From: a virus
Taxonomy: Duplodnaviria; Heunggongvirae; Uroviricota; Caudoviricetes
Strand: one strand, 5' to 3'
Virus record (IMG/VR): IMGVR_UViG_2563366803_000003
DNA length: 17,828 bases
The first letter of the stretch is position 1. Every line of letters starts with the position of its first letter. The position numbers were made by a program, and so were the translations under genes. This document shows positions 1-17,828 of this stretch, piece by piece. The notes below the pieces were generated by a model. That model saw nothing but the letters and a program-made list of their open reading frames with translations. It was not told the origin of the DNA and ran no database searches.

Positions 1-504
1 TTATTGATAGTGTTTTATGTTCAGATAATGCCCGATGACTTTGTCATGCAGCTCCACCGATTTTGAAAACGACAGCGACTTCCGTCCCAGCCGTGCCAGG
101 TGCTGCCTCAGATTCAGGTTATGCCGCTCAATTCGCTGCGTATATCGCTTGCTGATTACGTGCAGCTTTCCCTTCAGGCGGGATTCATACAGCGGCCAGC
201 CATCCGTCATCCATATCACCACGTCAAAGGGTGACAGCAGGCTCATAAGACGCCCCAGCGTCGCCATAGTGCGTTCACCGAATACGTGCGCAACAACCGT
301 CTTCCGGAGCCTGTCATACGCGTAAAACAGCCAGCGCTGGCGCGATTTAGCCCCGACATAGCCCCACTGTTCGTCCATTTCCGCGCAGACGATGACGTCA
401 CTGCCCGGCTGTATGTGCGAGGTTACCGACTGCGGCCTGAGTTTTTTAAGTGACGTAAAATCGTGTTGAGGCCAACGCCCATAATGCGGGCTGTTGCCCG
501 GCAT
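1..504 (-). CDS. insB: IS1 InsB (167 aa) transposase catalytic part, expressed as InsAB' by -1 frameshift
   Basis: Translation [25 protein letters not shown]... matches IS1 InsB as recalled. Confidence 0.95.
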
Positions 505-698
505 CCAACGCCATTCATGGCCATATCAATGATTTTCTGGTGCGTACCGGGTTGAGAAGCGGTGTAAGTGAACTGCAGTTGCCATGTTTTACGGCAGTGA
601 GAGCAGAGATAGCGCTGATGTCCGGCGGTGCTTTTGCCGTTACGCACCACCCCGTCAGTAGCTGAACAGGAGGGACAGCTGATAGAAACAGAAGCCAC
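423..698 (-). CDS. insA: IS1 InsA (91 aa, Cys4 zinc-finger/HTH transposition regulator)
   Basis: Translation [22 protein letters not shown]... matches IS1 InsA as recalled; A6C slippery site (gttttttaa on + strand near 442-450) precedes insB. Confidence 0.95.
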
Positions 699-753
699 TG
701 GAGCACCTCAAAAACACCATCATACACTAAATCAGTAAGTTGGCAGCATCACC

Positions 754-1236
754 CAGATAACGTAATATGGTCACTTCACGATTAGATAGCACAGTGACCG
801 TTGAACTATTCGTACTACATTTATTGCTTTTTATATAGTTAAGCGTTTCGCTGGGAAAAAACGTGTATCCGGAGAGGATCATCTGAACGGCATGAAAAAT
901 ATCATTCTGATCATTGCATTTACTGACAAAACCGTTAGCACCAGCTTGTATCGCTCTGCCAGCATAAAAGCATTCTGATTTCGATGATAAAAATAACACT
1001 TTCACTGTGCTCTGGATTTGTTTGATCCTTTTCAGGAAGGTAAAACCGTCTGTTCCGGGCAAGTCTATATCCATAATGATTAAATCAACAGGACGGGTTC
1101 GGAGATAATCGATGGTTATGCGGTAATCATCCGTTTTCAGGACAATCTGCAATTCACTGTTTTTTTGCAACAGAACTTCAATAGACATTCTGATGATAGG
1201 ATGAGTATCCATAATGATCACCGACGTTGGTTTCAT
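754..1236 (-). pseudogene. fimZ: fimZ (LuxR-family response regulator of fimbrial genes), 3' end interrupted by IS1; C-terminal HTH domain missing
   Basis: ORF MKPTSVIIMDTHPIIRMSIEVLLQKNSELQIVLKTDDYRI... receiver domain; reading frame runs into the IS1 terminus at 753 and ends with IS1-encoded residues GDAANLLI; fimZ is the known neighbour of argU. Confidence 0.85.
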
Positions 1237-1419
1237 AGTTACCAGTCTCATAGGAGCGGACAATTTTCCGTTAGGGCGGTAAATTGTACTTTGATACATG
1301 AAAATACGGGTTTTCTTGATTCAGACGCGCAGCGGTGTGCGTTTGTTTGCCGCTATAGCGAAATAAATCAGAAAATCAGACGCGGTCGTTCACTTGTTCA
1401 GCAACCAGATCAAAAGCCA

Positions 1420-2734: not shown

Positions 2735-2961
2735 TTTCTTTCCTCTGTTATGCCATCACCCGCGCTCACCTGGACAGTATGCAGCGGAGACTGAAGCGCC
2801 GCAATGCAGGCTTGCCGTGTTGTGAGGTAAGGAGATTTTGGCTTGGTTGGATCTTTACGTGTTGCCTGTAGGCGGCCTGTTCGTATCCAGTTGGTGGCGG
2901 TTGGTCTGGATATCTTAAGAAACTGACAGGCCTCATCGAGTGTGAGGCTGTATGATTCCAT
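2590..2961 (-). CDS. xis: Excisionase-like HTH protein (Xis), about 123 aa, overlapping the 5' end of int in another frame
   Basis: Start ATG at 2961 preceded by GAGGT SD; N-terminal [29 protein letters not shown] typical of excisionase/AlpA-type proteins; position upstream of int. Confidence 0.6.
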
Positions 2962-3211
2962 GGTTACCTCTGCTTTTTGAACGCATGTCACGTAACTTCT
3001 TAATGTGTTCTGCCGTTTCGATCTCTTCTGCTATCCGATCTGCATCAGCTTTATTCACAGGTTCAAAGTCATGATTAAAGCGGAACATGCTGGCGATACA
3101 TGTTCTGCCTTTTCGGATGTAGTGAACTTTGTTGTGGGTAGAACGCAGGATTTTGCAGGGAGTGCCGTGGTGGTCGACGTACCAGGTGTTAGGAAAAATG
3201 ATTCTGAACAT
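2933..3211 (-). CDS. Small Cys/His-containing phage protein (92 aa), possibly lambda Ea8.5-like by size and position next to xis
   Basis: ORF with GAGGTG SD 6 nt upstream of ATG at 3211; contains HH..C...H..H...C pattern; lambda Ea8.5 is 93 aa and lies next to xis. Confidence 0.4.
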   Translation of the reverse strand: MFRIIFPNTWYVDHHGTPCKILRSTHNKVHYIRKGRTCIASMFRFNHDFEPVNKADADRIAEEIETAEHIKKLRDMRSKSRGNHGIIQPHTR

Positions 3212-3258
3212 TTTTACACCTCAGTTGGACGATGTTGAAATTTGCTGCTTTGAGGCCA

Positions 3259-3477
3259 TCACAGTCCCCATTGTTTGTTCTTAAGTTCGATCTCCTCCTG
3301 GCAACTTGCACAAGTCCGACAACCCTGAACAGCCAGGCGTCTTCGCTCATCTATCGGATCGCCACACTCACAACAATGAGTTGCGGATACAGTCTGGTAG
3401 TTCTGACGACGCATTTTTATTGCTGTATTGCGCTGTAATTCTTCGATTTCTGATGCTGAATCAATGATGTCTGCCAT
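3259..3477 (-). CDS. TraR/DksA-family C4 zinc-finger protein (72 aa)
   Basis: CxxC-x17-CxxC signature (CCECGDPIDERRRLAVQGCRTCASC) typical of phage TraR/DksA-like proteins. Confidence 0.65.
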   Translation of the reverse strand: MADIIDSASEIEELQRNTAIKMRRQNYQTVSATHCCECGDPIDERRRLAVQGCRTCASCQEEIELKNKQWGL

Positions 3478-3529
3478 CTTCCATTAATCCCTGAATTGTT
3501 GGTTAATACGCTTGAGGATGAATGCGAAT

Positions 3530-3556
3530 AATAAAAAAGGAGCCTGTAGCTCCCTG
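3530..3556 (-). terminator. Possible rho-independent terminator (short GC stem ggagc/gctcc followed by T6 on minus strand)
   Basis: Hairpin 3539-3553 with A-tract 3533-3538 on + strand (= T-tract on minus), 20 nt downstream of the 3576 stop. Confidence 0.35.
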
Positions 3557-3575
3557 ATGATTTTGCTTTTCATGT

Positions 3576-3857
3576 TCATCGCTCCTTAAAGACGCCGTTT
3601 AACATGCCGATCGCCAGACTTAAATGAGTCGGTGTGAATCCCATCAGCGTTACCGTTTCGCGGTGCTTCTTCAGTACGCTACGGCAAATGTCATCGACGT
3701 TTTTATCCGGAAACTGCTGTCTGGCTTTTTTGATTTCAGAGTTAGCCTGACGGGCAATGCTGCGAAGGGCGTTTTCTTGCTGAGGTGTCATTGAACAAGT
3801 CCCATGTCGGCAAGCATAAGCACACAGAATATGAAGCCCGCTGCCAGAAAAATGCAT
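3576..3857 (-). CDS. Hypothetical lambdoid b-region protein (93 aa; alternative start at 3791 gives 72 aa)
   Basis: ORF in the minus-strand early-left gene string between xis and exo; no recognisable motif. Confidence 0.4.
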   Translation of the reverse strand: MHFSGSGLHILCAYACRHGTCSMTPQQENALRSIARQANSEIKKARQQFPDKNVDDICRSVLKKHRETVTLMGFTPTHLSLAIGMLNGVFKER

Positions 3858-3867
3858 TCAGTGGTTG

Positions 3868-4059
3868 TCATACCTGGTCTCTCTCATCTGCTTCTGCTTT
3901 CGCCACCATCATTTCCAGCTTTTGTGAAAAGGATGCGGCTAACGTATGAAATTCTTCGTCTGTTTCTACTGGTATTGGCACAAACCTGACTCCAATTTGA
4001 GCGAGGCTATGTGCCATCTCGATACTCGTTCTTAACTCAACGGGAGATGCTTTGTGCAT
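3868..4059 (-). CDS. Small lambdoid early protein, 63 aa (lambda orf63-like by size and position)
   Basis: GGGAG SD upstream of ATG at 4059; same orientation and tight packing with exo-proximal genes. Confidence 0.45.
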   Translation of the reverse strand: MHKASPVELRTSIEMAHSLAQIGVRFVPIPVETDEEFHTLAASFSQKLEMMVAKAEADERDQV

Positions 4060-4220
4060 ACAGCTCCCCGTTTATTATTTATCTCCTCAGCCAGCCGCTG
4101 TGCTTTCAGTGGATTTCTGATAACAGAAAGGCCGGGAAATACCCAGCCTCGCTTTGTAATGGAGTAGACGAAAGTGATCGCGCCTACCCGGATATTATCG
4201 TGAGGATGCGTCATCGCCAT
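4032..4220 (-). CDS. Small lambdoid early protein, 62 aa (lambda orf60a-like by position immediately upstream of exo)
   Basis: ORF overlapping exo start region; GGGGAG upstream of ATG at 4220. Confidence 0.45.
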
Positions 4221-4891
4221 TGCTCCCCAAATACAAAACCAATTTCAGCCAGTGCCTCGTCCATTTTTTCGATGAACTCCGGCACCATCTCGTCAAAACT
4301 CGCCATGTACTTTTCATTCCGCTCAATCACGACATAATGCAGGCCTTCACGCTTCATGCGCGGGTCATAGTTGGCAAAGTACCAGGCATCTTTTCGCGTC
4401 ACCCACATGCTGTACTGCACCTGGGCCATGTAAGCCGATTTTATTGCCTCGAAACCACCGAGCCGGAATTTCATGAAATCCCGGGAGGTAAACGGGCATT
4501 TCAGTTCAAGGCCGTTGCCGTCACTGCATAAACCATCGGGAGAGCAGGCGGTGCGCATACTTTCGTCGCGATAGATGATCGGGGATTCAGCAATATTCAC
4601 GCCGGAAGTGAATTCAAACAGGGTTCTGGCGTCGTTCTCGTACTGTTTTCCCCAGGCCAGCGCCTTAGCATTAACTTCCGGAGCCACACCGGTGCAAACC
4701 TCAGCCAGCAGGGTGTGGAAGTAGGACATTTTCATGTCAGGCCACTTCTTTCCTGAGCGGGGCTTTGCTATCACGTTGTGAACTTCTGAAGCGGTGATGA
4801 CGCCGAGCCGTAATTTGTGCCATGCATCATCCCCCTGTTCGACAGCTCTCACGTCGATCCCGGTACGCTGCAGGATAATGTCCGGTATCAT
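4211..4891 (-). CDS. exo: Lambda-type 5'-3' exonuclease Exo (Red-alpha), 226 aa
   Basis: Translation [65 protein letters not shown]... is near-identical to lambda Exo as recalled; same length. Confidence 0.95.
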
Positions 4892-5673
4892 GCTGCCACC
4901 TTCTGCTCAGTGGCTTTCTGTTTCAGGAATCCAAGAGCTTTCACTGCTTCGGCCTGTGTCATTTCTGACGATGCGCGAATGTCGCGGCGAAATATCTGGG
5001 AACAGAGCGGCAATAAGTCGTCATCCCATGTTTTATCCAGGGCGATCAGCAGAGTGTTAATCTCCTGCATGGTTTCATCGTTAACCGGAGTGATGTCGCG
5101 TTCTGGCTGACGTTCTGCAGTGTATGCAGTATTTTCGACAATGCGCTCGGCTTCATCCTTGTCATAGATACCAGCAAATCCGAAGGCCAGACGGGCACAC
5201 TGAATCATTGTTTTATGCCGTAACATCCGTTTGGGATGCGACTGCCACGGCCCCGTGATTTCTCTGCCTTCGCGGGTTTTGAATGGTTCGCGGCGGCATT
5301 CATCCATCCATTCGGTAACGCAGATCGGATGATTACGGTCCTTGCGGTAAATCCGGCATGTACAGGATTCATTGTCCTGCTCAAAGTCCATGCCATCAAA
5401 CTGCTGGTTTTCATTGATGATGCGGGACCAGCCATCAACGCCCACCACCGGAACAATGCCGTTCTGCTTATCAGGGAAGGCGTAAATTTCTTTCGTCCAC
5501 GGATTAAGGCCGTACTGGTTGGCGACGATCAACAATGCGATGAACTGCGCATCGCTGGCATCACCTTTAAATGCCGTCTGGCGAAGAGTGGTGATCAGTT
5601 CCTGTGGGTCGACAGAATCCATGCCGACACGTTCAGCCAGCTTCCCTGCCAGCGTTGCGAGTGCTGTACTCAT
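4888..5673 (-). CDS. bet: Lambda-type single-strand annealing protein Bet (Red-beta), 261 aa
   Basis: Translation [66 protein letters not shown]... matches lambda Bet; ATGA overlap with exo as in lambda. Confidence 0.95.
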
Positions 5674-5678
5674 CCGTT

Positions 5679-5975
5679 TTATACCTCTGAATCAATATCA
5701 ACCTGGTGGTGAGCAATGGTTTCAACCATGTACCGGATGTGTTCTGCCATGCGCTCCTGAAACTCAACATCGTCATCAAACGCACGGGTAATGGCTTTTT
5801 TGCTGGCCCCGCAGCGTTGCAAATGATCGATGCAGAGTGATTCAAACAGGTGCTGTGGAAGACCTTTTTCCATGTCGTCTGCCAGTTCTGACTCTTTCTC
5901 TTCACGGGCGATCTGCTGGTAGTGACGTGCCCAGCTCAGACCCTCAAGACGATCCTGAATGTAATAAGCGTTCAT
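5679..5975 (-). CDS. gam: Lambda Gam (RecBCD inhibitor), 98-aa GamS-length form
   Basis: Translation [56 protein letters not shown]... matches lambda Gam. Confidence 0.93.
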
Positions 5976-6050
5976 GGCTGAACTCCTGAAAATGGCTGTG
6001 AAAATATCGCCCGCGAAATGCCAGGCTGATTAGGAAAACAGGAAAGGGGA

Positions 6051-6257
6051 TTAGTGATTCAGGCCATTACCGCGTCCGTCGAAAAAAACTTCCACGAGCA
6101 AATCACGGGTATAAGTGCGCTCGATGCCGCGATGCAGATATAGCCGTCCGCGTAAATTAGCTGATGCAGTCCAGGTACCATCTTTGTGTTTGACCAGCAT
6201 TCCTGGCATGACCGCACCTCGATTAACGGTCTGCGTTCCGTAATGTTGATGAACCAT
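6051..6257 (-). CDS. Small early-left protein (68 aa from ATG at 6257 with AGGAG SD), possibly Kil-like host division inhibitor by position next to gam; in-frame upstream extension to 6461 is Arg-rich
   Basis: Strong SD (AGGAGTTTTT-ATG) at the internal start; first ORF downstream of the predicted pL; function assigned by synteny only. Confidence 0.4.
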
Positions 6258-6529
6258 AAAAACTCCTGCCCGTAAGCTGGGCTGCTGAACATATAGAGAC
6301 TTCTGCGCGTATTCAGGCGGTGGATGGCCGCCGGTTGTCATAACTAAGCCGCCTCGTTGAAGCGACTGAGGTATGAGGTGTTGAGTTGATTTCAGCTGGT
6401 CACACCGACGTTCACGCGTCCGTTTCACCCCTCGCACTCCCCGGAGCCTGCCGAAATTCAAGCTGCGGATCTAAGCGGTCATCGCAACGGTGAATCAGGT
6501 GGTTGCCGTATCGTTGTGTTGTTGCGACA

Positions 6530-6600
6530 TGGTGATAATAGCTATTGCTATTGGTGGTATCAATACTTATTGCTATTGATTGATGTGTTTTGATATTAAC
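6530..6600 (-). promoter_or_regulatory. Predicted pL/oL: minus-strand -35 TTGATA (+ coords 6558-6563) and -10 TATTAT (6535-6540) with 17-bp spacer, overlapped by repeated GCTATTG operator-like motifs
   Basis: Hexamers and spacing read directly; motif TTGCTATTG (6545-6553, 6570-6578) is shared with the cI-cro intergenic region. Confidence 0.4.
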
Positions 6601-6712
6601 TGTTTGATAGCAAAAAGAATTAATTTTGTGACTTGCATCGCATAGCGATAACTGAAGGGAGGTTGTGGTGGTTTTTCGAACGGTTTGTGTGATGAGGGGA
6701 GGGGACAAAAGA

Positions 6713-6745
6713 AAACCCGGCACGGTGGCCGGGACGTTTTATTTC
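6713..6745. terminator. Bidirectional rho-independent terminator (stem cccggc...gccggg, flanked by T-runs on both strands); likely end of the cI operon (tImm-like)
   Basis: aaaacccggcacggtggccgggacgttttatttc immediately after the stop of the 6739-7251 gene. Confidence 0.65.
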
Positions 6746-7251
6746 AAAGAAAAATTATGACTAGCGTATCTTGGAAGAAATTCATATAGTGTTAATGTCT
6801 TAACGCCGTGAGAAGCAGCAGCATCCGGGATCATTATTCTTTTTTTAGGTTTGCCACCGGATGGTTTCTCATGGGTAATAATAGTATATCCATGTGTCAT
6901 CGCATGGGCTATTAAAAAAGCATCTGCTTTTTCATGGCTTGCAAAATCAAACTTTGCCTTTTCGGTAACATCTAATTTAGTTGACCAATTTATTAACTTT
7001 GCATAATTTTCTATTGAACTATGCTCATCTTCGAAGAATGATGATGGTAACTCTTCTTTAATCCATTTACACAATGGATCATCTTTTGCACATAGTTCTT
7101 TTTTTACAGCATTAATGCTATAAATCAGACCATTCATGTGTAAAGCGAGAAGAAAATCCCAAAATATTTTGCAATAATTGAAGTTATATGCAAAGTTTTT
7201 TGCCTCTATGAAGACATTACTATCAATTAAGAATTTTCCATTATGAATCAT
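6739..7251 (-). CDS. DUF4411-type PIN-like putative nuclease (170 aa); candidate effector of a two-gene defense/toxin module
   Basis: Size, N-terminal FLIDSNVFI strand with conserved Asp and later acidic residues fit a PIN-like fold; ATGA start/stop overlap with upstream metallopeptidase gene; AT-rich composition. Confidence 0.6.
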   Translation of the reverse strand: MIHNGKFLIDSNVFIEAKNFAYNFNYCKIFWDFLLALHMNGLIYSINAVKKELCAKDDPLCKWIKEELPSSFFEDEHSSIENYAKLINWSTKLDVTEKAKFDFASHEKADAFLIAHAMTHGYTIITHEKPSGGKPKKRIMIPDAAASHGVKTLTLYEFLPRYASHNFSLK

Positions 7252-8387
7252 AGAGATTCTCGTTTTTTATAAAATTCAACAACTGTATCTGCTTTTACAT
7301 TTAGCAGTACGCCTGCTTCCCTTAATGGTAATTGTTGAGACATTGCTTTGGAAATTATTATATTCGTAAGTTTTGGACTGTTACGAACAGGTAATGTGTT
7401 AAAGAAAGAACCACCATTAGATTCTTTTTTGGGCTTATTGTAAGCTTGATCTTTAATTATCTCCAAAGTGTTTCTTTCTATCAAATCTAATTGTAACGCT
7501 TTGATTGCACAAGCGAAATCACTAACCTTAAATAACTTAGAAACCTCTTTTACTCGATAATAATTATTATCGCTGGATGCATTAAGCCAGAAAGATTTGA
7601 AGAGATTATCAGGCATTAAGATTTCAGCAGCAACTTTATTACAAAAAGATTCTATGTTTTTTTCTGTGTCCCACCCAGAGACTCCATCGACTCCAAGCCA
7701 AAGATGAGCCACCTCATGAAATAATGTAAATACCTGCGCAGATAACGCGTCCGAGCTATTTACAAAAATGATCGGAGCAACGCTATCAGATATACAGAAA
7801 CCACGAAACTCTCGCGTGTCAAGTTTTCTTTTATTATTATTACCCACAACACCATTCTTGAAAACTAATACGCCAGTGTCTTCTATTAGTTTTGCCACTT
7901 TAGAAAAATAGCTCTCAAAAGTGACATTTTTTATCTCTTTTTGTATATCAAAATGTATTGTGTTTGCTATGTCTGTAGCAACAACCTTATAATTTAATTT
8001 TCTATTAAATTTAAATTTACCAATAAAATCGAGTGGATCATCATTACCATTTTCTCTTAAATAGTCTTTGTACCACTCAAGTTTATATTCTATATCATAG
8101 TAAACATCAAAAAAATCTTTTCCTAACTCACGGCTATTTATAGCTTGCCTTAAGTCAGGGATCTTGGGTTTGGCTGGAGTTGGTGGCGTTTCAAGAAATA
8201 AAAAACCGAAAGGGATTCCTCCAATTTTTGCCAGTTTTTCTGCTGCGGATTTACTTACCACTCCGTTAAGAAATTTATTAATCTTTTTGGGCATGACTTG
8301 GTCAGCAAGAGTTTCGATAGAAACTCCTTGAGAATTTGCTATCCAATCAATCATCTTCCTAGACAATTGAAATTCAACCGCTGCCAT
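7248..8387 (-). CDS. HTH + ImmA/IrrE-family (COG2856/M78-like) zinc metallopeptidase, 379 aa
   Basis: HExxH motif in FTLFHEVAHLWLG; N-terminal HTH-like segment (IDWIANSQGVSIETLADQV); AGGTGA SD upstream of ATG at 8387; translationally coupled to DUF4411 gene. Confidence 0.7.
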   Translation of the reverse strand: MAAVEFQLSRKMIDWIANSQGVSIETLADQVMPKKINKFLNGVVSKSAAEKLAKIGGIPFGFLFLETPPTPAKPKIPDLRQAINSRELGKDFFDVYYDIEYKLEWYKDYLRENGNDDPLDFIGKFKFNRKLNYKVVATDIANTIHFDIQKEIKNVTFESYFSKVAKLIEDTGVLVFKNGVVGNNNKRKLDTREFRGFCISDSVAPIIFVNSSDALSAQVFTLFHEVAHLWLGVDGVSGWDTEKNIESFCNKVAAEILMPDNLFKSFWLNASSDNNYYRVKEVSKLFKVSDFACAIKALQLDLIERNTLEIIKDQAYNKPKKESNGGSFFNTLPVRNSPKLTNIIISKAMSQQLPLREAGVLLNVKADTVVEFYKKRESL

Positions 8388-8516
8388 GTTATCACCTAGT
8401 TAAAAAAAACTATTATTCAACAATTATTGTTGTGCACCTGATAGCTAACGTCAAGCCTAATTTATTGCCTTACTACAGTAAGCTGAAAAGCGAAGTGCAT
8501 AATTTTGTTCTGATTT

Positions 8517-9209
8517 CTACCCATGCTTTCTATATGTCTGCGGCATGCTCCCGATGACTTTCCCGAAGATGAACACGCGGTTCATCTCGTCTTTCTCGAT
8601 CGGGTCCCACGGTGAGTAGCTCTTGTTATCAGAGATAACCAGCAGCTTATCCTTCATCATTTGCAGGCGCTTTACATGGGCGGTGTCGTCATACAGAAAC
8701 GCATAGATACCATCACCGTCGAAAGATTTAACAGTGATATCAACGAACAGAAGATCACCTGGTTCGATCGTTCCTGACATGCTGTCACCGCGTACGTTAA
8801 TGATGCGGATATTTTCTGCCTTCCTGCCATCGAACATGTGACGAGCATCGTCAAACGAGTACTCAACCGAGCGTAGAACTTCTACAAACTCACGGTTGAT
8901 GACTCCCGGCCCGGCACTCACTTCTATATCAAGAACGTCAATCTTGAAGTATTTGGGATGGTTGGCAGTAGGCTTCCCTAATTGTTGACCGTCATTTCTC
9001 ATCGGGCCTATGCCTGATGAGAGCCACTCTGTTCGAACACCCAATGCATTAGCTATTTCAACAATTTTTGTTGAGCCGCGCGCGTTGCCGCTTGTCAGTC
9101 TCCAGATTGTGGGTTGAGCTACCCCAGACGCCTTTGCAAGAGCGCCTTGAGACATTCCAGATTGTTCCATCGCTAGGTTTAAGCGATCAGCAAGAGTTTC
9201 TTTTTTCAT
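8517..9209 (-). CDS. cI: cI-type prophage repressor (N-terminal XRE HTH + C-terminal S24/LexA-like autopeptidase), about 230 aa, leaderless
   Basis: HTH segment LADRLNLAMEQSGMSQGALAKASGVAQPTIWRL; S24 peptidase signature around GDSMSGTIEPGDLLFVD with downstream Lys (HVKRL); ATG at 9209 lies 7 nt after a -10 hexamer. Confidence 0.85.
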   Translation of the reverse strand: MKKETLADRLNLAMEQSGMSQGALAKASGVAQPTIWRLTSGNARGSTKIVEIANALGVRTEWLSSGIGPMRNDGQQLGKPTANHPKYFKIDVLDIEVSAGPGVINREFVEVLRSVEYSFDDARHMFDGRKAENIRIINVRGDSMSGTIEPGDLLFVDITVKSFDGDGIYAFLYDDTAHVKRLQMMKDKLLVISDNKSYSPWDPIEKDEMNRVFIFGKVIGSMPQTYRKHG

Positions 9210-9319
9210 AAGTTTTAATTTATACGCTTGCGTATTGATGGTCAAAACACGTTTTGCTATTGTTATGATTAATACGCATTGCTATTATTTATTCATTGCA
9301 ATACCAATAGGAATTGATA
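9210..9319. promoter_or_regulatory. Divergent immunity control region. Predicted pRM on minus strand (-35 TTGACC at + 9240-9245, -10 TAAATT at 9217-9222, leaderless cI) and pR on plus strand (-35 TTGTTA 9260-9265, -10 TATTAT 9283-9288); operator-like repeats TTGCTATT and palindromes
   Basis: Hexamers and 17-bp spacings read directly; motif shared with 6540-6580. Confidence 0.5.
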
Positions 9320-9547
9320 ATGACAAATCAAACCATTCAACTCGCAATCAGTATTACAGGTAGTCAAAAACGACTGGCAGATCTATGCGGTGTAGCCCAA
9401 CCCACTGTTTGGCGTTGGCTACACGGTGGCGGAATTGATGCCCGCTATGTAATGAAAATTGTCTCAGCCACTGGTGGAAAGATTAAACCAGCAGATATTC
9501 GTCCCGACCTCGCACCATTGTTTAACGCGAGTAATTCTGCCGCCTAA
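9320..9547 (+). CDS. cro: Cro-like HTH regulator of the YdaS family (about 75 aa)
   Basis: HTH segment GSQKRLADLCGVAQPTVWRWL; AGGAA SD 6 nt upstream of ATG 9320; divergent from cI. Confidence 0.7.
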   Translation: MTNQTIQLAISITGSQKRLADLCGVAQPTVWRWLHGGGIDARYVMKIVSATGGKIKPADIRPDLAPLFNASNSAA

Positions 9548-9571
9548 ACTGCGGCGTTAACTGATAAGGCA

Positions 9572-10117
9572 ATGACTATGCAACCACTTACATACCAACA
9601 GACTAGCGGATTTAGCCCGACTGTGGTGATAAATCGTTCTCAAACAAAACAAGCTCCAGGCCACGAAAAAATCCGTGATGCCGTCCGCGCCTGGTCGGCT
9701 GCAGATAATCAGGATGTTGTTGCCGCACTCATTGTGAATGAGTATCGGGAGCAGGGCGGCGGCACCATCGATTTCCCTGATGATGTCAGCCGTGCACGCC
9801 AGAAGCTGTTCCGCTTCCTCGATAACAAATTCGATTCTGAAAAATACCGAAATAACGTGCGTGAACTGACCCCGGCAATTCTGGCGGTACTACCGCTGGA
9901 ATATCGCGGTTACCTGGTTGAGCAGGATAGCTTTATGGCTAGGTTGGCTGAAATGGAAAAGGAACTCAGTGAGGCAAAACAGGCTGTCATTCTCAACGCA
10001 CCACGCCACCAGAAACTGAAGGAGATGAGTGAAGGCATTGTGTCGATGTTTCGAGTGGACCCGGATCTGGCTGGTCCATTGATGGCGATGGTCACCACCA
10101 TGCTGGGGGCAATATGA
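9572..10117 (+). CDS. YdaT-family protein (181 aa), occupying the cII position
   Basis: Recalled resemblance (..EYREQGGG.., ..LTPAILAVLP..) to Rac YdaT-type proteins; always paired with YdaS-type cro; position between cro and O. Confidence 0.5.
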   Translation: MTMQPLTYQQTSGFSPTVVINRSQTKQAPGHEKIRDAVRAWSAADNQDVVAALIVNEYREQGGGTIDFPDDVSRARQKLFRFLDNKFDSEKYRNNVRELTPAILAVLPLEYRGYLVEQDSFMARLAEMEKELSEAKQAVILNAPRHQKLKEMSEGIVSMFRVDPDLAGPLMAMVTTMLGAI

Positions 10118-10203
10118 CAGGTTCAAAAATGGCGAAAGTCGGTCTGCGGGAACAGAACCGACTTTCAGGTGCAAATCGTAACACACTCATTGCGGGAGGA
10201 ATT

Positions 10204-11133
10204 ATGGCAAACACTGCTGAGATATTCAATTTTCCAGTGCCGGATGCGGCACAAAAGGAGCCGCGCGTGGCAGATCTCGATGATGGTTATACGCGCATTG
10301 CAAATGAGTTGCTGGAAGCTGTGATGCTGGCCGGATTAACACAGCACCAGCTTCTGGTCTTCCTGGCTGTCATGCGCAAAACATATGGCTTTAATAAAAA
10401 ACTGGATTGGGTGAGCAACGAGCAACTTTCCGAGTTGACCGGGATATTGCCGCACAAGTGTTCTGCTGCAAAAAGTGTTCTGGTAAAGCGTGGGATTTTT
10501 ATTCAGAGCGGGCGGAATATCGGCATCAATAATGTGGTCAGTGAATGGTCAACATTACCCGAATCGGGTAAGAAAAATAAAGTTTACCTGAAAGAGGTAA
10601 ATTTACCTGAATCAGGTAAGAAAAGTTTACCTAAATCAGGTAAAGGCGTTTACCCGAATCAGGTAAACACAAAAGACAAACTAACAAAAGACAATATAAA
10701 ACCTTTATCGTCCGAGAATTCTGGCGAATCCTCTGACCAGCCAGAAAACGATCTTCCTGTGGTGAAACCGGATGCTGCAATTCAGAGCGGCAGCAAGTGG
10801 GGGACAGCAGAAGACCTGACCGCCGCAGAGTGGATGTTTGACATGGTGAAGACCATCGCGCCATCAGCCAGAAAACCGAATTTTGCAGGGTGGGCTAACG
10901 ATATCCGCCTGATGCGTGAACGTGATGGACGTAACCACCGCGACATGTGCGTGCTGTTCCGCTGGGCATGCCAGGACAACTTCTGGTCCGGTAACGTGCT
11001 GAGTCCGGCTAAACTCCGCGACAAGTGGACCCAGCTCGAAATCAACCGTAACAAGCAACAGGCTGGCGTGACAGCCAGAAAACCAAAACTCGACCTGACA
11101 AACACTGACTGGATTTACGGGGTGGATTTATGA
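10204..11133 (+). CDS. O: Lambda O-type replication initiator (about 309 aa from ATG 10204 with GGGAGG SD)
   Basis: N-terminus MANTAEIFNFP...VADLDDGYTRIANELLEAV...LLVFLAVMRKTYGFNK resembles lambda O N-terminal domain; internal iteron array. Confidence 0.85.
   Translation: MANTAEIFNFPVPDAAQKEPRVADLDDGYTRIANELLEAVMLAGLTQHQLLVFLAVMRKTYGFNKKLDWVSNEQLSELTGILPHKCSAAKSVLVKRGIFIQSGRNIGINNVVSEWSTLPESGKKNKVYLKEVNLPESGKKSLPKSGKGVYPNQVNTKDKLTKDNIKPLSSENSGESSDQPENDLPVVKPDAAIQSGSKWGTAEDLTAAEWMFDMVKTIAPSARKPNFAGWANDIRLMRERDGRNHRDMCVLFRWACQDNFWSGNVLSPAKLRDKWTQLEINRNKQQAGVTARKPKLDLTNTDWIYGVDL
10555..10710 (+). repeat. Phage origin of replication: five 17-bp palindromic iterons TTACC(C/T)GAATC(A/G)GGTAA (10555-10571, 10584-10600, 10603-10619, 10627-10643, 10649-10665) followed by an A-rich tract
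   Basis: Direct repeats read in sequence inside the O gene, as in ori-lambda. Confidence 0.8.
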
Positions 11134-11831
11134 AAAACATCGCCGCACAGATGGTTAACTTTGACCGTGAGCAGATGCGTCGGATCGCCAACAACATGCC
11201 GGAACAGTACGACGAAAAGCCGCAGGTACAGCAGGTAGCGCAGATCATCAACGGTGTGTTCAGCCAGTTACTGGCAACTTTCCCGGCGAGCCTGGCTAAC
11301 CGTGACCAGAATGAACTGAACGAAATCCGCCGCCAGTGGGTTCTGGCTTTCCGGGAAAACGGGATCACCACAATGGAACAGGTTAACGCTGGAATGCGCG
11401 TAGCCCGTCGGCAGAATCGACCATTCCTGCCATCACCCGGGCAGTTTGTCGCCTGGTGCCGGGAAGAAGCATCTGTTAACGCCGGGCTGCCAAACGTCAG
11501 CGAGCTGGTTGATATGGTTTACGAGTATTGCCGGAAGCGTGGCCTGTATCCGGATGCAGAGTCTTATCCGTGGAAATCGAACGCGCATTACTGGTTGGTT
11601 ACCAACTTGTACCAGAACATGCGGGCCAATGCGCTGACTGACGCGGAATTACGGCGCAAGGCTGCCGATGAACTGACCTGTATGACAGCGCGAATTAACC
11701 GTGGTGAGACGATACCTGAACCAGTAAAACAACTTCCTGTTATGGGCGGTAGACCTCTAAATCGTGCACAGGCTCTGGCGAAGATCGCAGAAATTAAAGC
11801 TAAGTTCGGACTGAAAGGAGCAATTGTATGA
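11130..11831 (+). CDS. P: Lambda P-type replication protein (DnaB helicase loader), 233 aa
   Basis: Translation MKNIAAQMVNFDREQMRRIANNMPEQYDEKPQVQQVAQIINGVFSQLLATFPASLANRDQNELNEIRRQW... matches lambda P; ATGA overlap with O. Confidence 0.95.
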   Translation: MKNIAAQMVNFDREQMRRIANNMPEQYDEKPQVQQVAQIINGVFSQLLATFPASLANRDQNELNEIRRQWVLAFRENGITTMEQVNAGMRVARRQNRPFLPSPGQFVAWCREEASVNAGLPNVSELVDMVYEYCRKRGLYPDAESYPWKSNAHYWLVTNLYQNMRANALTDAELRRKAADELTCMTARINRGETIPEPVKQLPVMGGRPLNRAQALAKIAEIKAKFGLKGAIV

Positions 11832-12130
11832 CGGGCAAAGAGGCAATTATTCATTACCTGGGGACGCATAAGAGCTTCTGTGCACAGGACGTTGCCGCGG
11901 TAACAGGCGCAACCGTAACCAGCATAAATCAGGCTGCGGCTAAAATGGCGCGGGCAGGAATCCTGGTCGTTGATGGTAAGGTCTGGCGAACGGTGTATTA
12001 CCGGTTCGCTACCAGAGAAGAACGGGAAGGAAAGGTGAGCACGAATCTGATTTTTAAGGAGTGTCGCCAGAGTGCCGCGATGAAACGGGTATTGAGGGTA
12101 TATAAAAGAACATCAATGGGAACACAATGA
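11828..12130 (+). CDS. ren: Ren (Rex exclusion-escape protein), 100 aa
   Basis: Translation MTGKEAIIHYLGTH.SFCA.DVAA.TGATVTSINQAAAKMARAG... matches lambda Ren; ATGA overlap with P. Confidence 0.9.
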   Translation: MTGKEAIIHYLGTHKSFCAQDVAAVTGATVTSINQAAAKMARAGILVVDGKVWRTVYYRFATREEREGKVSTNLIFKECRQSAAMKRVLRVYKRTSMGTQ

Positions 12131-12197
12131 TGAAACAGGTGAGTTGAGTTCAAACTGTAGTACAATTCTCTCCAGTTTGAACAGGAAAGAATATGCT

Positions 12198-12530
12198 ATG
12201 AACCCTTATATTTATCTTGGTGGTGCAATACTTGCAGAGGTCATTGGTACAACCTTAATGAAGTTTTCAGAAGGTTTTACACGGTTATGGCCATCTGTTG
12301 GTACAATTATTTGTTATTGTGCATCATTCTGGTTATTAGCTCAGACGCTGGCTTATATTCCTACAGGGATTGCTTATGCTATCTGGTCAGGAGTCGGTAT
12401 TGTCCTGATTAGTTTACTGTCATGGGGATTTTTCGGCCAACGGCTGGACCTGCCAGCCATTATAGGCATGATGTTGATTTGTGCCGGTGTGTTGGTTATT
12501 AATTTATTGTCACGAAGCACACCACATTAA
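12198..12530 (+). CDS. emrE: EmrE small multidrug-resistance efflux transporter, 110 aa (prophage moron)
   Basis: Translation MNPYIYLGGAILAEVIGTTLMKFSEGFTRLWPSVGTIICYCASFWLLAQTLAYIPTGIAYAIWSGVGIVLISLLSWGFFGQRLDLPAIIGMMLICAGVL... matches EmrE; AGGAAAG SD. Confidence 0.95.
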   Translation: MNPYIYLGGAILAEVIGTTLMKFSEGFTRLWPSVGTIICYCASFWLLAQTLAYIPTGIAYAIWSGVGIVLISLLSWGFFGQRLDLPAIIGMMLICAGVLVINLLSRSTPH

Positions 12531-12550
12531 AATAATTTGTTTCTAAACGA

Positions 12551-12590
12551 CTAAAATATGGAGGCTCTTATATTTATATGAGCCTCGTTT
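12551..12590 (+). terminator. Rho-independent terminator downstream of emrE (stem gaggctc...gagcctc followed by T-rich tract)
   Basis: Hairpin 12551-12576, T-run 12577-12590. Confidence 0.7.
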
Positions 12591-12784
12591 TATGCTTTTT
12601 GTTAATGTCTTTATTTTTTATGTATTCTTTTGTGCTTTCAAGATTATGGCGTAAGAAAATTGCAATACGATTATTGTTGTATATTCAAGATAATGTGACC
12701 TTAATTGTCTTTTTAAATAAAAATTAAACAAAAATTATATCCCACCACTAAGGTTTATAAAAGCATACGTTAGCAGGTGTCACC

Positions 12785-13624
12785 ATGAAAAAAGCCATAG
12801 CATATATGCGATTTTCATCACCAGGTCAGATGTCTGGTGACTCATTAAACCGACAGAGAAGACTTATTGCTGAATGGTTAAAGGTAAATAGTGATTATTA
12901 TCTTGATACCATAACATATGAAGATTTAGGATTAAGTGCATTCAAAGGAAAGCATGCACAATCAGGAGCTTTTTCGGAATTTTTAGATGCTATAGAGCAT
13001 GGTTATATATTGCCAGGAACTACATTGTTAGTTGAAAGTCTGGACAGACTTTCAAGAGAAAAAGTCGGTGAAGCGATTGAACGTCTGAAATTGATTTTGA
13101 ATCACGGTATTGATGTTATAACTCTTTGCGACAATACAGTCTATAATATTGACTCTTTGAATGAGCCATATTCATTAATAAAAGCCATACTTATAGCACA
13201 AAGGGCAAATGAAGAAAGCGAGATAAAGTCAAGTCGGGTTAAATTATCATGGAAGAAAAAACGGCAGGATGCAATGGAATCAGGTACGATTATGACGGCG
13301 TCTTGTCCGAGATGGCTCTCCTTAGATGACAAAAGAACGGCTTTTGTTCCAGACCCCGACAGGGTGAAAACTATTGAGCTAATTTTTAAACTCAGGATGG
13401 AAAGGCGCTCATTGAATGCAATAGCCAAGTATTTAAATGATCATGCTGTAAAGAATTTCTCAGGAAAAGAAAGTGCATGGGGACCTTCTGTAATTGAAAA
13501 ATTATTAGCGAATAAAGCTCTGATAGGTATATGCGTACCTTCATATCGTGCAAGAGGGAAAGGGATAAGTGAAATCGCTGGCTATTATCCCAGAGTTATA
13601 TCAGATGATTTGTTTTACGCTGTA
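12785..13624 (+). pseudogene. ybcK: ybcK-like serine recombinase, truncated after about 280 codons by IS1
   Basis: N-terminal resolvase-type catalytic domain (AIAYMRFSSPGQMSGDSLNRQRR... with catalytic Ser), reading frame runs into IS1 left terminus at 13625. Confidence 0.8.
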
Positions 13625-13639
13625 GGTAATGACTCCAAC

Positions 13640-14143
13640 TTATTGATAGTGTTTTATGTTCAGATAATGCCCGATGACTTTGTCATGCAGCTCCACCGAT
13701 TTTGAAAACGACAGCGACTTCCGTCCCAGCCGTGCCAGGTGCTGCCTCAGATTCAGGTTATGCCGCTCAATTCGCTGCGTATATCGCTTGCTGATTACGT
13801 GCAGCTTTCCCTTCAGGCGGGATTCATACAGCGGCCAGCCATCCGTCATCCATATCACCACGTCAAAGGGTGACAGCAGGCTCATAAGACGCCCCAGCGT
13901 CGCCATAGTGCGTTCACCGAATACGTGCGCAACAACCGTCTTCCGGAGACTGTCATACGCGTAAAACAGCCAGCGCTGGCGCGATTTAGCCCCGACATAG
14001 CCCCACTGTTCGTCCATTTCCGCGCAGACGATGACGTCACTGCCCGGCTGTATGCGCGAGGTTACCGACTGCGGCCTGAGTTTTTTAAGTGACGTAAAAT
14101 CGTGTTGAGGCCAACGCCCATAATGCGGGCTGTTGCCCGGCAT
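13640..14143 (-). CDS. insB: IS1 InsB (the longer 194-aa ORF in the track is the out-of-frame upstream extension used for InsAB' frameshifting)
   Basis: Same frame and sequence as copy A InsB, with one amino-acid difference (H vs R). Confidence 0.93.
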
Positions 14144-14337
14144 CCAACGCCATTCATGGCCATATCTATGATTTTCTGGTGCGTACCGGGTTGAGAAGCG
14201 GTGTAAGTGAACTGCAGTTGCCATGTTTTACGGCAGTGAGAGCAGAGATAGCGCTGATGTCCGGCGGTGCTTTTGCCGTTACGCACCACCCCGTCAGTAG
14301 CTGAACAGGAGGGACAGCTGATAGAAACAGAAGCCAC
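14062..14337 (-). CDS. insA: IS1 InsA
   Basis: Identical protein to copy A InsA. Confidence 0.95.
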
Positions 14338-14392
14338 TGGAGCACCTCAAAAACACCATCATACACTAAATCAGTAAGTTGGCAGCATCACC

Positions 14393-14512
14393 CTCACTAA
14401 AGCAGGTTTCTGGCTGGATGATGCTCAGGTCGTTGATTACCGCGTTGTGAAGATGCCTGTTACCAAAGGTGGGAGGCTGGAACTGACCATCACCGAAATG
14501 GGGAATGAATGA
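14393..14512 (+). pseudogene. rusA: 3' fragment (last 39 codons) of rusA Holliday-junction resolvase, fused directly to the IS1 terminus
   Basis: Translation [39 protein letters not shown] equals the RusA C-terminus as recalled; no start codon or N-terminal part. Confidence 0.8.
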
Positions 14513-14649
14513 TGTTTGAGTTTAATATAGCAGAACTTCTTCGCCACCGCTGGGGGCGTCTGCGCTTATATCGTTTCCCCGGTTCTGTTTTGACCGATTA
14601 CCGAATACTGAAGAATTACGCCAAAACCCTGACAGGAGCAGGAGTATGA
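14509..14649 (+). CDS. ylcG: YlcG small protein (46 aa), start overlaps rusA stop (ATGA)
   Basis: Translation [46 protein letters not shown] matches DLP12 YlcG as recalled. Confidence 0.7.
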
Positions 14650-14734
14650 AGTCAGAGATAACAATCAACTAATACTGTTTTATTGATTTTTGCTTGTAAT
14701 TGGCGTTCTGGTCTGATTTTTGTGGAGTAAGTTG

Positions 14735-15118
14735 ATGCGTGATATTCAGATGGTTCTTGAGCGTTGGGGAGCGTGGGCGGCTAATAATCATGAAGATGTG
14801 ACCTGGTCGTCCATTGCCGCCGGTTTTAAGGGATTAATTCCTTCAAAAGTAAAATCTCGCCCGCAATGTTGTGACGATGACGCGATGATCATTTGCGGGT
14901 GCATGGCCCGTCTGAAAAAGAACAACAGCGATTTGCACGATTTATTAGTAGATTATTATGTAGTCGGTATGACATTCATGTCACTGGCAGGTAAGCATTG
15001 CTGCTCTGATGGTTATATCGGGAAAAGGTTACAAAAGGCTGAGGGCATAATTGAAGGGATGTTAATGGCATTAGATATCCGGTTAGAGATGGATATCGTT
15101 GTTAATAACTCTAATTAA
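14735..15118 (+). CDS. quuD: Late-gene antiterminator Q (QuuD-like), 127 aa
   Basis: Translation [24 protein letters not shown]...[16 protein letters not shown]... with Cys-rich zinc-binding motif; GGAG SD 7 nt upstream. Confidence 0.85.
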
Positions 15119-15143
15119 TACGCCAATTATTTACTAAAAGTTA

Positions 15144-15298
15144 TTAAAAATGGGGCGTTGAAACGCCCCCAAAAATAAAGGGTAATATATAACAGAAGGT
15201 TTGTATAGTTAGAAGCAAGGTTGTGCTTCTAAAGGAAGTGGCTTGAGGGAGCCACTTATATGTTGGGGAGGCAAAGCCTCCCACAACATATCTTTTAG
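15144..15298. promoter_or_regulatory. Q-downstream region with three hairpins (15151-15170, 15238-15256, 15257-15290). Likely contains pR'/qut and a tR'-like terminator on + strand (15257-15298) and a convergent terminator for the porin gene on minus strand (15144-15170)
   Basis: Stem-loops read directly; the 15151-15170 hairpin is followed by a T-run on the minus strand, the 15257-15290 hairpin by CTTTT on the plus strand. Confidence 0.4.
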
Positions 15299-15306
15299 TA
15301 ATCAAA

Positions 15307-16389
15307 TTAGAACTGGTAAACCATACCTACAGCAACGATATCATCGGTAGCAACGCCAGATGCTTTCGTGAAATCGCTCTTATCAATCAGGTTGATTTTG
15401 TAGTCAACAAAAGTGGACATATTTTTGTTGAAGTAATAGGTTGCACCTACATCAACATATTCAACCAGGTCCTGATCACCCCAAACACCCAAGTCTTTTC
15501 CTTTAGAATGCAGGTAAGCAACGGATGGACGCAGGCCGAAGTCGAACTGATATTGTGCAACAGCTTCGAAGTTTTGTGCTTTGTTGGCAATATGGTTATT
15601 ACCAAAAACAGTCATGTTCTGGGTTTCAGAATAGGTGGTGGCCAGATAGATGTTGTTCGCATCATATTTCAGACCAGCTGCCCATACTTCAGCATTTTGA
15701 CCAGAAGCATTCAGACCGTTGTTACCGTAGATAACCTGATTATTAGTGCGATCAGATTTAGCATAGGTTGCACCTACACCGAATCCTTCATACTCATAAG
15801 TAGTGGAGAAACCGAAACCATCACCATTAGCTTCAGTTACGTCAGTGCGGTCATTTTTACCCTGATACTGAGCAGCAAAGTTCAGACCATCAACCAGACC
15901 AAAGAAGTCGTTGTTACGATAAGTTGCAACACCAGTGGTGCGACCAGTCATGAACACATCTGTTTGAGTCCAAGTGTCACCACCGAATTCTGGCAGGACG
16001 TCAGTCCACGCACCGATGTCGTATGCTACACCGTAGTTACGGCCGTAATCGATGGAGCCGTAGTCACCGAATTTCAGGCCAGCGAAGGCAAGACGGGTTT
16101 TATCTTTGGAGGAACCTTGAGATTCAGCGCGGTTGCCTTTGAATTCATATTCCCACTGACCGAAACCAGTCAGTTGATCGTTGATTTGGGTTTCACCTTT
16201 GAAGCCAAGACGGGCATAAGTAGTATCACCATCATCTGCATCATTAGAGGAGAAGTAGTGCTTAGCATTAACTTTCCCGTACAGATCCAGCTTGTTACTG
16301 TCTTTATTATAAATTTCAGCTGCCTGAGCAGACATCGCCATCAGTACTGATGCAGCTACAGCAGAAATTGCCACTGTTAATTTTTTCAT
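15307..16389 (-). CDS. nmpC: Outer-membrane general porin of the NmpC/OmpD/OmpC family, intact (360 aa with signal peptide)
   Basis: Signal peptide [23 protein letters not shown], beta-barrel porin sequence ending ...VGMVYQF; opposite orientation to the phage late genes (moron). Confidence 0.9.
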
Positions 16390-16978
16390 CGTGAGCCCTT
16401 TTTTTTGAACTATTATTAAAAAATGATGTCACTGCGCGATAAATATTCATCTAATCAATGTGATTATTTCAAGATGTAAGTTTTAGTTTCTCATTTAATT
16501 TGTGAAGTAGATCTCTATTTTTATCTGAACTTTTTCTATCGAAACCTATTTATGGCTCTTATTTGAACAAAAATAAACCTATTAGCTAATTTATATTAAT
16601 GGCTGTTATTTATGGGGGGGTCTATAATTCGATGGTTTAATTTAAATTAACTAAAAATAACGCCGGAAATTATTTATTGGTTATTTGTTGAGGTTTTCTT
16701 ATGTATTTGTGGTGGTGTTTTGAACACTCGGTAGCATTCTCATAAATATCATTCAGTGGTTTACGTACGTAAAAAATTGGTTATGCTGTTAAGAGTGGTT
16801 ACTTCGTCACACAGCTTAAACCCGCCGTCGAGCTGGTTTTTCCATTTTTTGAGTCTCGATATTAGCTGATAACTCAATACCTGAGTTATTCACTGACTCC
16901 GAGTCTGTTACGTTTCTGCTTTTTTGCGATACGTTGTATTCCCTCAATTTACACCCGCTTTGTCTGCGAGGTGGGGTT

Positions 16979-17194
16979 ATGAAATCCATGGATAAGTTAA
17001 CAACGGGTGTCGCCTATGGCACCTCAGCAGGTAGTGCCGGTTACTGGTTTTTACAGCTGCTCGATAAAGTCACGCCCTCACAGTGGGCAGCAATAGGTGT
17101 GCTGGGTAGCCTGGTATTTGGCCTGCTGACGTACCTGACAAACCTTTATTTCAAGATTAAAGAAGATAAGCGCAAGGCTGCGAGAGGTGAATAA
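16979..17194 (+). CDS. essD: Class II holin / pinholin of the S21 family (71 aa) with dual-start motif MKSMDK
   Basis: Translation [71 protein letters not shown]; two TM segments; stop overlaps endolysin start (TAATG). Confidence 0.85.
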
Positions 17195-17599
17195 TGCCTC
17201 CATCATTACGAAAAGCCGTTGCTGCTGCTATTGGTGGCGGAGCAATTGCTATAGCATCAGTGTTAATCACTGGCCCAAGTGGTAACGATGGTCTGGAAGG
17301 TGTCAGCTACATACCATACAAAGATATTGTTGGTGTATGGACCGTATGTCACGGGCATACAGGAAAAGACATCATGCTCGGTAAAACGTATACCAAAGCA
17401 GAATGCAAAGCACTCTTGAATAAAGACCTTGCCACTGTCGCCAGACAAATTAACCCATACATCGAAGTCGATATACCGGAAACAACGCGCGGCGCTCTTT
17501 ACTCATTCGTTTACAACGTGGGTGCTGGCAATTTCAGAACATCGACGCTTCTTCGCAAAATAAACCAGGGCGATATCAAAGGCGCATGTGATCAGTTAC
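17194..17599 (+). pseudogene. rrrD: SAR-endolysin (RrrD/R21-like lysozyme) truncated near codon 135 by IS2 insertion
   Basis: N-terminal signal-anchor-release segment [20 protein letters not shown]; lysozyme core; frame continues into the IS2 terminus giving a chimeric tail [16 protein letters not shown]. Confidence 0.8.
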
Positions 17600-17828
17600 T
17601 AGACTGGCCCCCTGAATCTCCAGACAACCAATATCACTTATTTAAGTGATAGTCTTAATACTAGTTTTTAGACTAGTCATTGGAGAACAGATGATTGATG
17701 TCTTAGGGCCGGAGAAACGCAGACGGCGTACCACACAGGAAAAGATCGCAATTGTTCAGCAGAGCTTTGAACCGGGGATGACGGTCTCCCTCGTTGCCCG
17801 GCAACATGGTGTAGCAGCCAGCCAGTTA
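17600..17828 (+). mobile_element. IS2 (IS3 family), terminal part only; continues beyond window
   Basis: Terminus tagactggccccctgaatctccagacaaccaatatcacttaa and downstream orfA (insC) start match IS2 as recalled. Confidence 0.85.
17691..17828 (+). CDS. insC: IS2 OrfA (InsC) transposase N-terminal part, partial at window end
   Basis: Translation [46 protein letters not shown]. Confidence 0.85.

Follow-up and report, generated by a model that had tools for sequence, protein, structure and literature searches.

The window, i.e., the whole 17,828-nt stretch of DNA analyzed here, is a DLP12-type lambdoid prophage that is integrated by a tRNA-Arg(UCU) gene (argU in E. coli K-12). The tRNA-Arg(tct) gene is at positions 1479–1555, and both the integration site and the gene order are of the DLP12 type. 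A 387-aa ORF (positions 1571–2734) is at the position annotated as intD in E. coli 442/2, and a full lambdoid early region is next to it. Positions 2785–17828 show 100% identity to scaffold KE137162.1 of assembly GCA_000408585.1.

An IS1 element is located between remnants of two genes, ybcK and rusA. The ybcK 5' fragment (12785–13624, plus strand) represents codons 1–280 of the 508 codons of a large serine recombinase gene and has Resolvase and Recombinase Pfam domains. The 280 residues are identical to the first 280 residues of the 508-aa YbcK of strain 442/2. The frame stays open into IS1 up to position 13705, which provides a 26-aa tail encoded by the element. Residues 281–508 (the C-terminal 228 residues) are deleted, and a functional large serine recombinase is not encoded. 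The C-terminal part of YbcK from strain PSS-13 is annotated as a zinc ribbon domain-containing protein. On the other side of IS1 is the rusA 3' remnant (14393–14512, plus strand). It consists of 39 codons, for residues 82–120, plus the stop codon, has no start codon, and corresponds to positions 94–124 of the 124 positions of the Pfam RusA profile. Upstream, its frame ends at a stop inside IS1. RusA residues D70, D72, K76 and D90 are critical for endonuclease activity (PMC1636454). The first three of these are missing from the remnant, and there is no functional 120-aa RusA. The interrupted serine recombinase gene on the left and the last 39 rusA codons on the right had both been recognized in the original prediction, and the boundaries given here agree with it. 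Both ybcK and rusA in the window are pseudogene remnants.

The genes that follow the rusA remnant are, in order, ylcG, quuD, a 360-aa porin gene, essD and rrrD. The ylcG gene (14509–14649, plus strand) is intact and is named from the annotation of relatives; PF26818 is found at the matching position of a related locus (L006). The quuD gene (14735–15118, plus strand), which encodes the Q antiterminator, is also intact and matches Phage_antitermQ with E = 9.7e-54. Only IS1 and the rusA remnant now separate quuD, the activator of the late genes, from the early region, so that it is placed directly behind an IS1. Other IS copies are found elsewhere in the prophage, an IS1 in fimZ (window positions 1–753) and an IS2 in rrrD (from approximately 17600). 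The three IS events, in ybcK-rusA, fimZ and rrrD, mark a decaying prophage.

IS1 itself is 768 bp in length, with imperfect inverted repeats of approximately 23 bp and an A6C motif at which a -1 frameshift produces the InsAB' DDE transposase. A simple IS1 insertion is flanked by a target-site duplication of 8–9 bp. The original prediction of a complete IS1 at positions 13625–14392 is correct; all 768 bp and both termini can be read directly from the sequence, which starts with GGTAATGACTCC and ends with GGCAGCATCACC. The element is IS1A-like (99.5% identity to annotated IS1A copies) and is on the minus strand, with IRR (13625–13647) on the ybcK side and IRL (14370–14392) on the rusA side. These terminal inverted repeats are 23 nt and imperfect, and their arms are 78% complementary. 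The insA gene (14062–14337) and the insB frame (13640–14143), both on the minus strand, together give Pfam matches to Zn_ribbon_InsA, HTH_Tnp_IS1 and DDE_Tnp_IS1. The element has the A6C frameshift motif TTAAAAAAC, and InsAB' can be reconstructed as an open frame of 232 aa, with one substitution (R130S) relative to the IS1 copies of PSS-13 and REL606. Those two copies encode an InsA identical to the 91-aa InsA here. Thus the length, the terminal repeats, and the insA and insB' frame with the A6C motif are those of an IS1. A comparison of IS1 copies shows one SNP, at position 14167, that is private to the copy in the window.

Both junctions are exactly at the IS1 termini, and the element is retained intact. 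On the left, the 9 bp TACGCTGTA (13616–13624) represent the retained copy of the IS1 target in ybcK, which in the window is present on this side only. On the right, the 9 bp CTCACTAAA (14393–14401) are the first bases past IRL and mark the distal end point of the deletion, at the boundary of rusA codons 81 and 82. In intact rusA, CTCACTAAA is preceded by ...GCTTTTGACGCA. A comparison of the two 9-bp flanks shows matches at 4 of 9 positions; in agreement with the original prediction, they are not a target-site duplication. The missing duplication reflects the history of this copy and not the identity of the element as an IS1. A hybrid promoter or a fusion gene at the junction between IS1 and the rusA remnant was considered and rejected, because the rusA frame is startless and is stopped inside IS1, and a simple scan across the junction reveals no plus-strand promoter-like site. 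The sole promoter-like site in IRL is on the minus strand and points into IS1 towards insA.

The closest intact relatives of the locus are in E. coli 442/2 and E. coli B REL606. Both have exactly 3872 bp between the breakpoints, contiguous and with the same genes: the last 687 bp of ybcK, then ybcL, ybcM, a 102-bp ORF, ybcN, ninE, ybcO and rusA codons 1–81. The flanks in 442/2 are 100% (0 SNP, left) and 99.9% (1 SNP, right) identical to those in the window. The left flank (12100–13624) shows 100% identity to ten complete E. coli genomes without the IS1, and the right flank (14393–15300) 99.9–100% identity to other complete E. coli genomes. No piece of 200 bp or more of the REL606 interval between the ybcK 3' and rusA 5' parts is found anywhere in the window. 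That a real, IS1-bounded deletion is present in the window can hardly be doubted. Compared with a ybcK::IS1 intermediate, 9 + 3872 = 3881 bp have been lost, a figure that includes the second copy of TACGCTGTA; measured against PSS-13, which has another nin-region module, it is 3284 bp. With regard to gene content, the earlier list of missing genes (ybcL, ybcM, ybcN, ninE, ybcO and the 5' part of rusA) holds, but it omits the 102-bp ORF at the ylcH position, which is also lost. The nin region is lost from the prophage. That ybcK and rusA are natural neighbors is excluded within the limits of these data, since not one of 5,426 complete E. coli genomes covers at least 80% of a 2.5-kb junction query. 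The two findings that the original prediction had named as contrary to it, such an adjacency (0 of 5,426) and identical 9-bp repeats around the IS1, are both absent.

E. coli PSS-13 has a simple insertion at the same site. Here an IS1 is found at the identical ybcK nucleotide and in the identical orientation, with a perfect TACGCTGTA on both sides, and the downstream DNA, with the remainder of ybcK and the nin region, is intact. The left junction in the window is therefore an ordinary insertion junction, and the junction of IRL with rusA is the derived one. With the 3872-bp interval present in 442/2 and REL606, and with PSS-13 as the expected type of intermediate, the proposal that the locus arose by adjacent deletion or inter-IS1 recombination, and not by simple insertion, is supported. 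Over 840 nt of ybcK, PSS-13 has 5 differences from the window, three of which are no more than 70 nt away from the IS1, and the two IS1 copies differ at 5 of 768 nt. IS1-free strains are identical to the window in the ybcK sequence compared. These differences, together with the match of the IS1-free strains, indicate that the insertions in PSS-13 and in the window are probably independent. PSS-13 was rejected as the direct ancestor; it has the other ybcK allele and a P22AR-domain gene in place of ybcL and ybcM.

Both junctions are found base for base in an independent assembly, GCA_964051545.1, on a 2.6-Mb contig (locus L005). In that assembly an IS2 has since landed within the IS1, and another IS1, itself flanked by a 9-bp duplication, is present at the equivalent of window positions 7630–7638. 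The presence of the same junctions implies that the deletion is inherited in a lineage and is not a misassembly. The exact 306-aa YbcK-IS1 fusion ORF is also found in four other contigs, all of which end inside IS1. The ybcK::IS1 lineage is rare, with one of 5,426 complete genomes and approximately seven contigs.

A search for the right junction between IS1 and rusA, which would also detect rusA::IS1 in this orientation, gave no true case in the 5,426 complete E. coli genomes. The top matches of the first megablast (H2–H30) were rejected, as the search tool had joined IS1 copies from elsewhere, in or near the porin gene, to rusA-quuD. The only full-coverage matches of the junction search were likewise two separate pieces that the tool had joined; in H31–H35 an IS1 is found approximately 500 bp upstream, beside a truncated ybcO of a different prophage. 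Exact-pattern scans of genome_contigs, metagenome_contigs and viral_contigs gave no right junction, a result of little weight as these collections have few E. coli strains. Zero exact-pattern matches to the left junction and to the PSS-13-type right junction in the contig collections scanned carry similarly little weight, for the same reason. The hypothetical reciprocal junction, rusA 5' part with IRR, is absent from viral_contigs, again by exact-pattern scan and with few E. coli strains represented. A direct intermediate would read IRL + TACGCTGTACAGGAAATTCGG on the ybcK allele of the window, and a rusA::IS1 with the CTCACTAAA duplication would read GCTTTTGACGCACTCACTAAA + IRR (GGTAATGACTCC...). 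A direct ancestor, i.e., ybcK::IS1 on the ybcK allele of the window with the downstream DNA intact, was not found.

The origin of the locus is probably, with moderate confidence, an IS1 insertion in ybcK and, later, an adjacent deletion made by transposase from the IRL end. IS1 would first have inserted in ybcK between codons 280 and 281, with duplication of the 9-bp target TACGCTGTA. The IRL of the resident element would then have attacked CTCACTAAA at rusA codon 82, 3.9 kb downstream on the same molecule, in an intramolecular (abortive or replicative) transposition. Such an intramolecular transposition is classically named IS1 adjacent deletion. By definition it would depend on transposase and not on RecA, and it differs from recombination between IS copies in that the distal end point would have had no second IS beforehand. 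The second TACGCTGTA and the 3872 bp would be lost, and the IS1 would stay, intact and without a target duplication. We infer both the order of these steps and the involvement of transposase. The locus has several features of an adjacent deletion: a junction at the terminus of an intact IS, one original insertion junction, and lost DNA that is contiguous in relatives. This route is favored since it requires a single event from a kind of state that is actually observed. It is also favored since neither the 5,426 complete genomes nor the three collections of contigs show a true rusA::IS1 junction, which is weak evidence as the ybcK::IS1 lineage is itself rare. IS1-adjacent deletions of 4–66 kb, from the exact IS1 end to variable points in coding sequences, have been observed directly in E. 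coli (PMC10569738), and adjacent deletion is a documented cause of lost target duplications (PMC11708052); the ready formation of deletions with the same anatomy and the documented loss of the duplication also argue for this route.

The exact IS1 terminus at the new junction implies either a transposase-mediated event or homologous recombination between two IS1 copies. In the second case another IS1 would have inserted in rusA in the same orientation, with duplication of CTCACTAAA, and RecA-dependent recombination would have excised the 3.9 kb together with one IS1. This is a credible but distinctly less probable history. It yields the exact structure observed, with one IS1 between two unrelated 9-bp flanks, and it too has been documented to leave an IS without its target duplication (PMC11708052). 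Related strains have many IS1 copies, e.g., at least 40 matching places in PSS-13, and the copies in the lineage exchange or accumulate SNPs rapidly, with 3 differences between the window and GCA_964051545.1 at the same locus. The lineage is rare, which leaves room for an ancestor of this kind outside the genomes sampled. On the other hand, two extra events are needed and not one, and a rusA::IS1 junction is what the searches of complete genomes and contig collections failed to detect. Adjacent deletion and recombination between direct repeats of IS1 give an identical product, and sequence alone cannot separate them. A chimera test was made with seven variable positions in eight IS1 copies. 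The 5 differences between the window and PSS-13 are scattered over the full length of the IS1, and most are variants that other copies have as well. A chimeric SNP pattern, which recombination might have left, is not visible, but with no left/right block pattern the test is uninformative on the choice between the two.

Adjacent deletion from ybcK must also be weighed against its reverse, in which IS1 was first in rusA at CTCACTAAA and its IRR deleted leftward into ybcK. The ybcK site was apparently hit independently in PSS-13 (other ybcK allele, other IS1 variant) and may be a preferred target, which would make it a hot spot for such a strike. Yet an intramolecular strike on the exact nucleotide of a known simple insertion would be needed, and simple ybcK::IS1 is seen whereas rusA::IS1 is in none of the genomes and contig collections searched; this direction is very unlikely. 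Equally doubtful is a one-step event, in which a new IS1 copy inserted with loss of the DNA between two targets and no earlier resident IS1. Events of this kind have been proposed for IS5 and IS481 (PMC11708052), and the immediate ybcK::IS1 intermediate is not found on the allele of the window. However, the simple insertion in PSS-13 is at the exact site, and 14 of 14 IS-associated deletions in the LTEE were traced to a pre-existing IS and a later adjacent deletion (PMC11708052). An assembly artefact, with two IS1 copies collapsed and the intervening DNA dropped, would be conceivable for a multicopy repeat in GCA_000408585.1, which is apparently at scaffold level. It is the least probable of these readings and scarcely credible, as the second assembly reproduces both junctions, its nested IS2 links the ybcK-side and rusA-side parts of IS1 through unique IS1/IS2 joints, and the SNP at 14167 is private to the IS1 in the window.

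The rusA end point CACTAAAGCAG (14395–14405) and the subterminal IRL sequence CACTAAATCAG (14364–14374) match at 10 of 11 positions. This level of matching is reached by just 0.3–0.4% of 30-nt stretches, shuffled or real, in what is a post hoc test. The similarity is no more than suggestive of a target chosen by transposase, and it fits a simple insertion in rusA, as in the two-IS1 route, equally well. A deletion through microhomology of CACTAAATCAG (IS1) with CACTAAAGCAG (rusA) is excluded, because it would not leave what is seen, an intact IS1 terminus with the junction exactly there and not inside the repeat. The independent insertions in PSS-13 and in the window suggest that ybcK codons 280/281 may be an IS1 hot spot. 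That there is a true hot spot in ybcK, used in at least two E. coli lineages, and that the rusA end point was chosen for its resemblance to IRL is a tentative proposal. If both are true, IS1 would here have chosen its targets by their sequence in a natural setting, for insertion and for intramolecular deletion.

The absence of ybcL, ybcM, ybcN, ninE and ybcO from this prophage matters mainly for correct annotation. Suppression of ruv defects through rusA, which DLP12 makes possible in K-12, is therefore not open to this strain. Loss of the nin region, with an IS1 placed between the early operon and Q, adds to the immobilization of the prophage. Together the relatives illustrate an erosion driven by IS1, from the intact locus in 442/2 and the simple insertion in PSS-13 to the deletion in the window and the more decayed descendant with an added IS2 in GCA_964051545.1. 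The event is an ordinary, textbook kind of prophage decay in a known cryptic prophage, and no new mechanism or system is involved.

The DLP12 prophage of E. coli B REL606, the reference used here, has the same tRNA-Arg(UCU) site beside fimZ. The order intD ... ren-emrE-ylcJ-ybcK ... rusA-ylcG-quuD-porin-essD-rrrD is also shared, with DLP12 of both K-12 and REL606. REL606 differs in that it is without the early region (exo, bet, gam, kil, cI-like repressor, O, P) that the window has kept, and in that it has an IS1 in the porin gene, which is intact (360 aa) in the window. Conversely, REL606 has kept the DNA that runs from the 3' part of ybcK to the 5' part of rusA, which is lost beside the IS1 in the window. 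Insertions of IS2 and IS10 in K-12 (PMC1636454) also alter the rusA locus of a DLP12-type prophage. These, however, are upstream and activate a silent, intact rusA, whereas the event in the window removes codons 1–81 and destroys the gene.

With respect to mechanism, the deletions in the nfsB region and the capsule locus described by Wan et al. 2023 (PMC10569738) are similar in that they start at the terminus of a resident, intact IS1, end at an arbitrary point in a coding sequence, and keep the IS1. They differ in that their formation was observed in the laboratory, from an available parent strain, and in that they span 4–66 kb; in the window we see the product alone and deduce the parent from relatives, and the deletion is 3.9 kb and inside a prophage. 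The system in PMC11708052 likewise has two steps, an insertion and then a neighboring deletion, that result in an IS without a target duplication. It differs in that it concerns the IS3 family, with copy-out-paste-in transposition, and in that the order of events was proved by time-series samples, a series that does not exist for the window.

The IS1 in ybcK of E. coli PSS-13 (L001, positions 6916–7701), which has a 9-bp target duplication, is identical in nucleotide position and orientation to that of the window (13616–14392). The ybcK alleles of the two differ at 5 of 840 positions, and the IS1 variants inserted in them at 5 of 768. The window ybcK allele is identical to that found in strains without IS1. 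From a comparison of the alleles and IS1 variants, the ybcK insertions in PSS-13 and in the window are probably independent, and in that case the ybcK site would represent an IS1 hot spot.

The complete IS1 copy at 13625–14392 has an A-to-T change at window position 14167 (IS1 position 543) that is private to this copy. The change is silent in insA but abolishes the TGA codon that usually bounds the insB frame on its upstream side, and the loss of this codon is why an ORF of 194 aa is listed and not one of 167 aa. InsA is unaltered and the frameshifted transposase InsAB' is still open. At the rusA side of this copy, the subterminal IRL sequence CACTAAATCAG (positions 14364–14374) and the rusA target CACTAAAGCAG (positions 14395–14405) match at 10 of 11 positions. 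The two sequences lie 31 bp apart. About 0.3–0.4% of control 30-mers match as well as this in a test that was post hoc.

Sequence L011 from E. coli 63-2 (positions 5283–6311) is a different lambdoid prophage, located at the ybhC site, that also carries an IS1. Here ybcO is without its N-terminal part and is found about 170 bp downstream of the IS1, just upstream of rusA; an IS3 and an integrase are present on the far side of the IS1. This arrangement may represent a second, independent IS-associated loss of the prophage early/nin region.

Other insertion sequences are present in the window. A second IS1 (positions 1–753, clipped by the window start) interrupts fimZ in its 3' part; it is oriented like the 13625 copy and differs from it at 3 positions. 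The FimZ ORF (727–1299, minus strand) continues into this IS1, and FimZ of the relative 442/2 terminates otherwise. An IS2 interrupts the lysozyme gene rrrD, and its left end (TAGACTGGCCCC...) forms the last stretch of the window (17598–17828); the rrrD ORF is 151 aa here, compared with a 165-aa product in L005 (the related assembly GCA_964051545.1). L005 has an extra, inverted IS1 at positions 4078–4845 that interrupts the M78-peptidase gene, with a 9-bp duplication corresponding to window positions 7630–7638, and an IS2 (about 11430–12760) nested within the ybcK-rusA IS1. These two elements indicate that the prophage is still gaining insertion sequences.

A two-gene cassette (6739–8387, minus strand) between kil and the cI-like repressor gene encodes a DUF4411 protein of 170 aa and a Peptidase_M78 (ImmA/IrrE-type) protein of 379 aa. 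The latter shows only weak PADLOC matches (capP, 9.8e-15; RmrA, about 1e-7), and the DUF4411 protein has no PADLOC match. In 442/2, a SecB-like/MqsA-like cassette is found in place of this pair. The prophage porin gene (15307–16389, minus strand) is intact and encodes 360 aa, whereas the porin gene of E. coli B REL606 is interrupted by an IS1.
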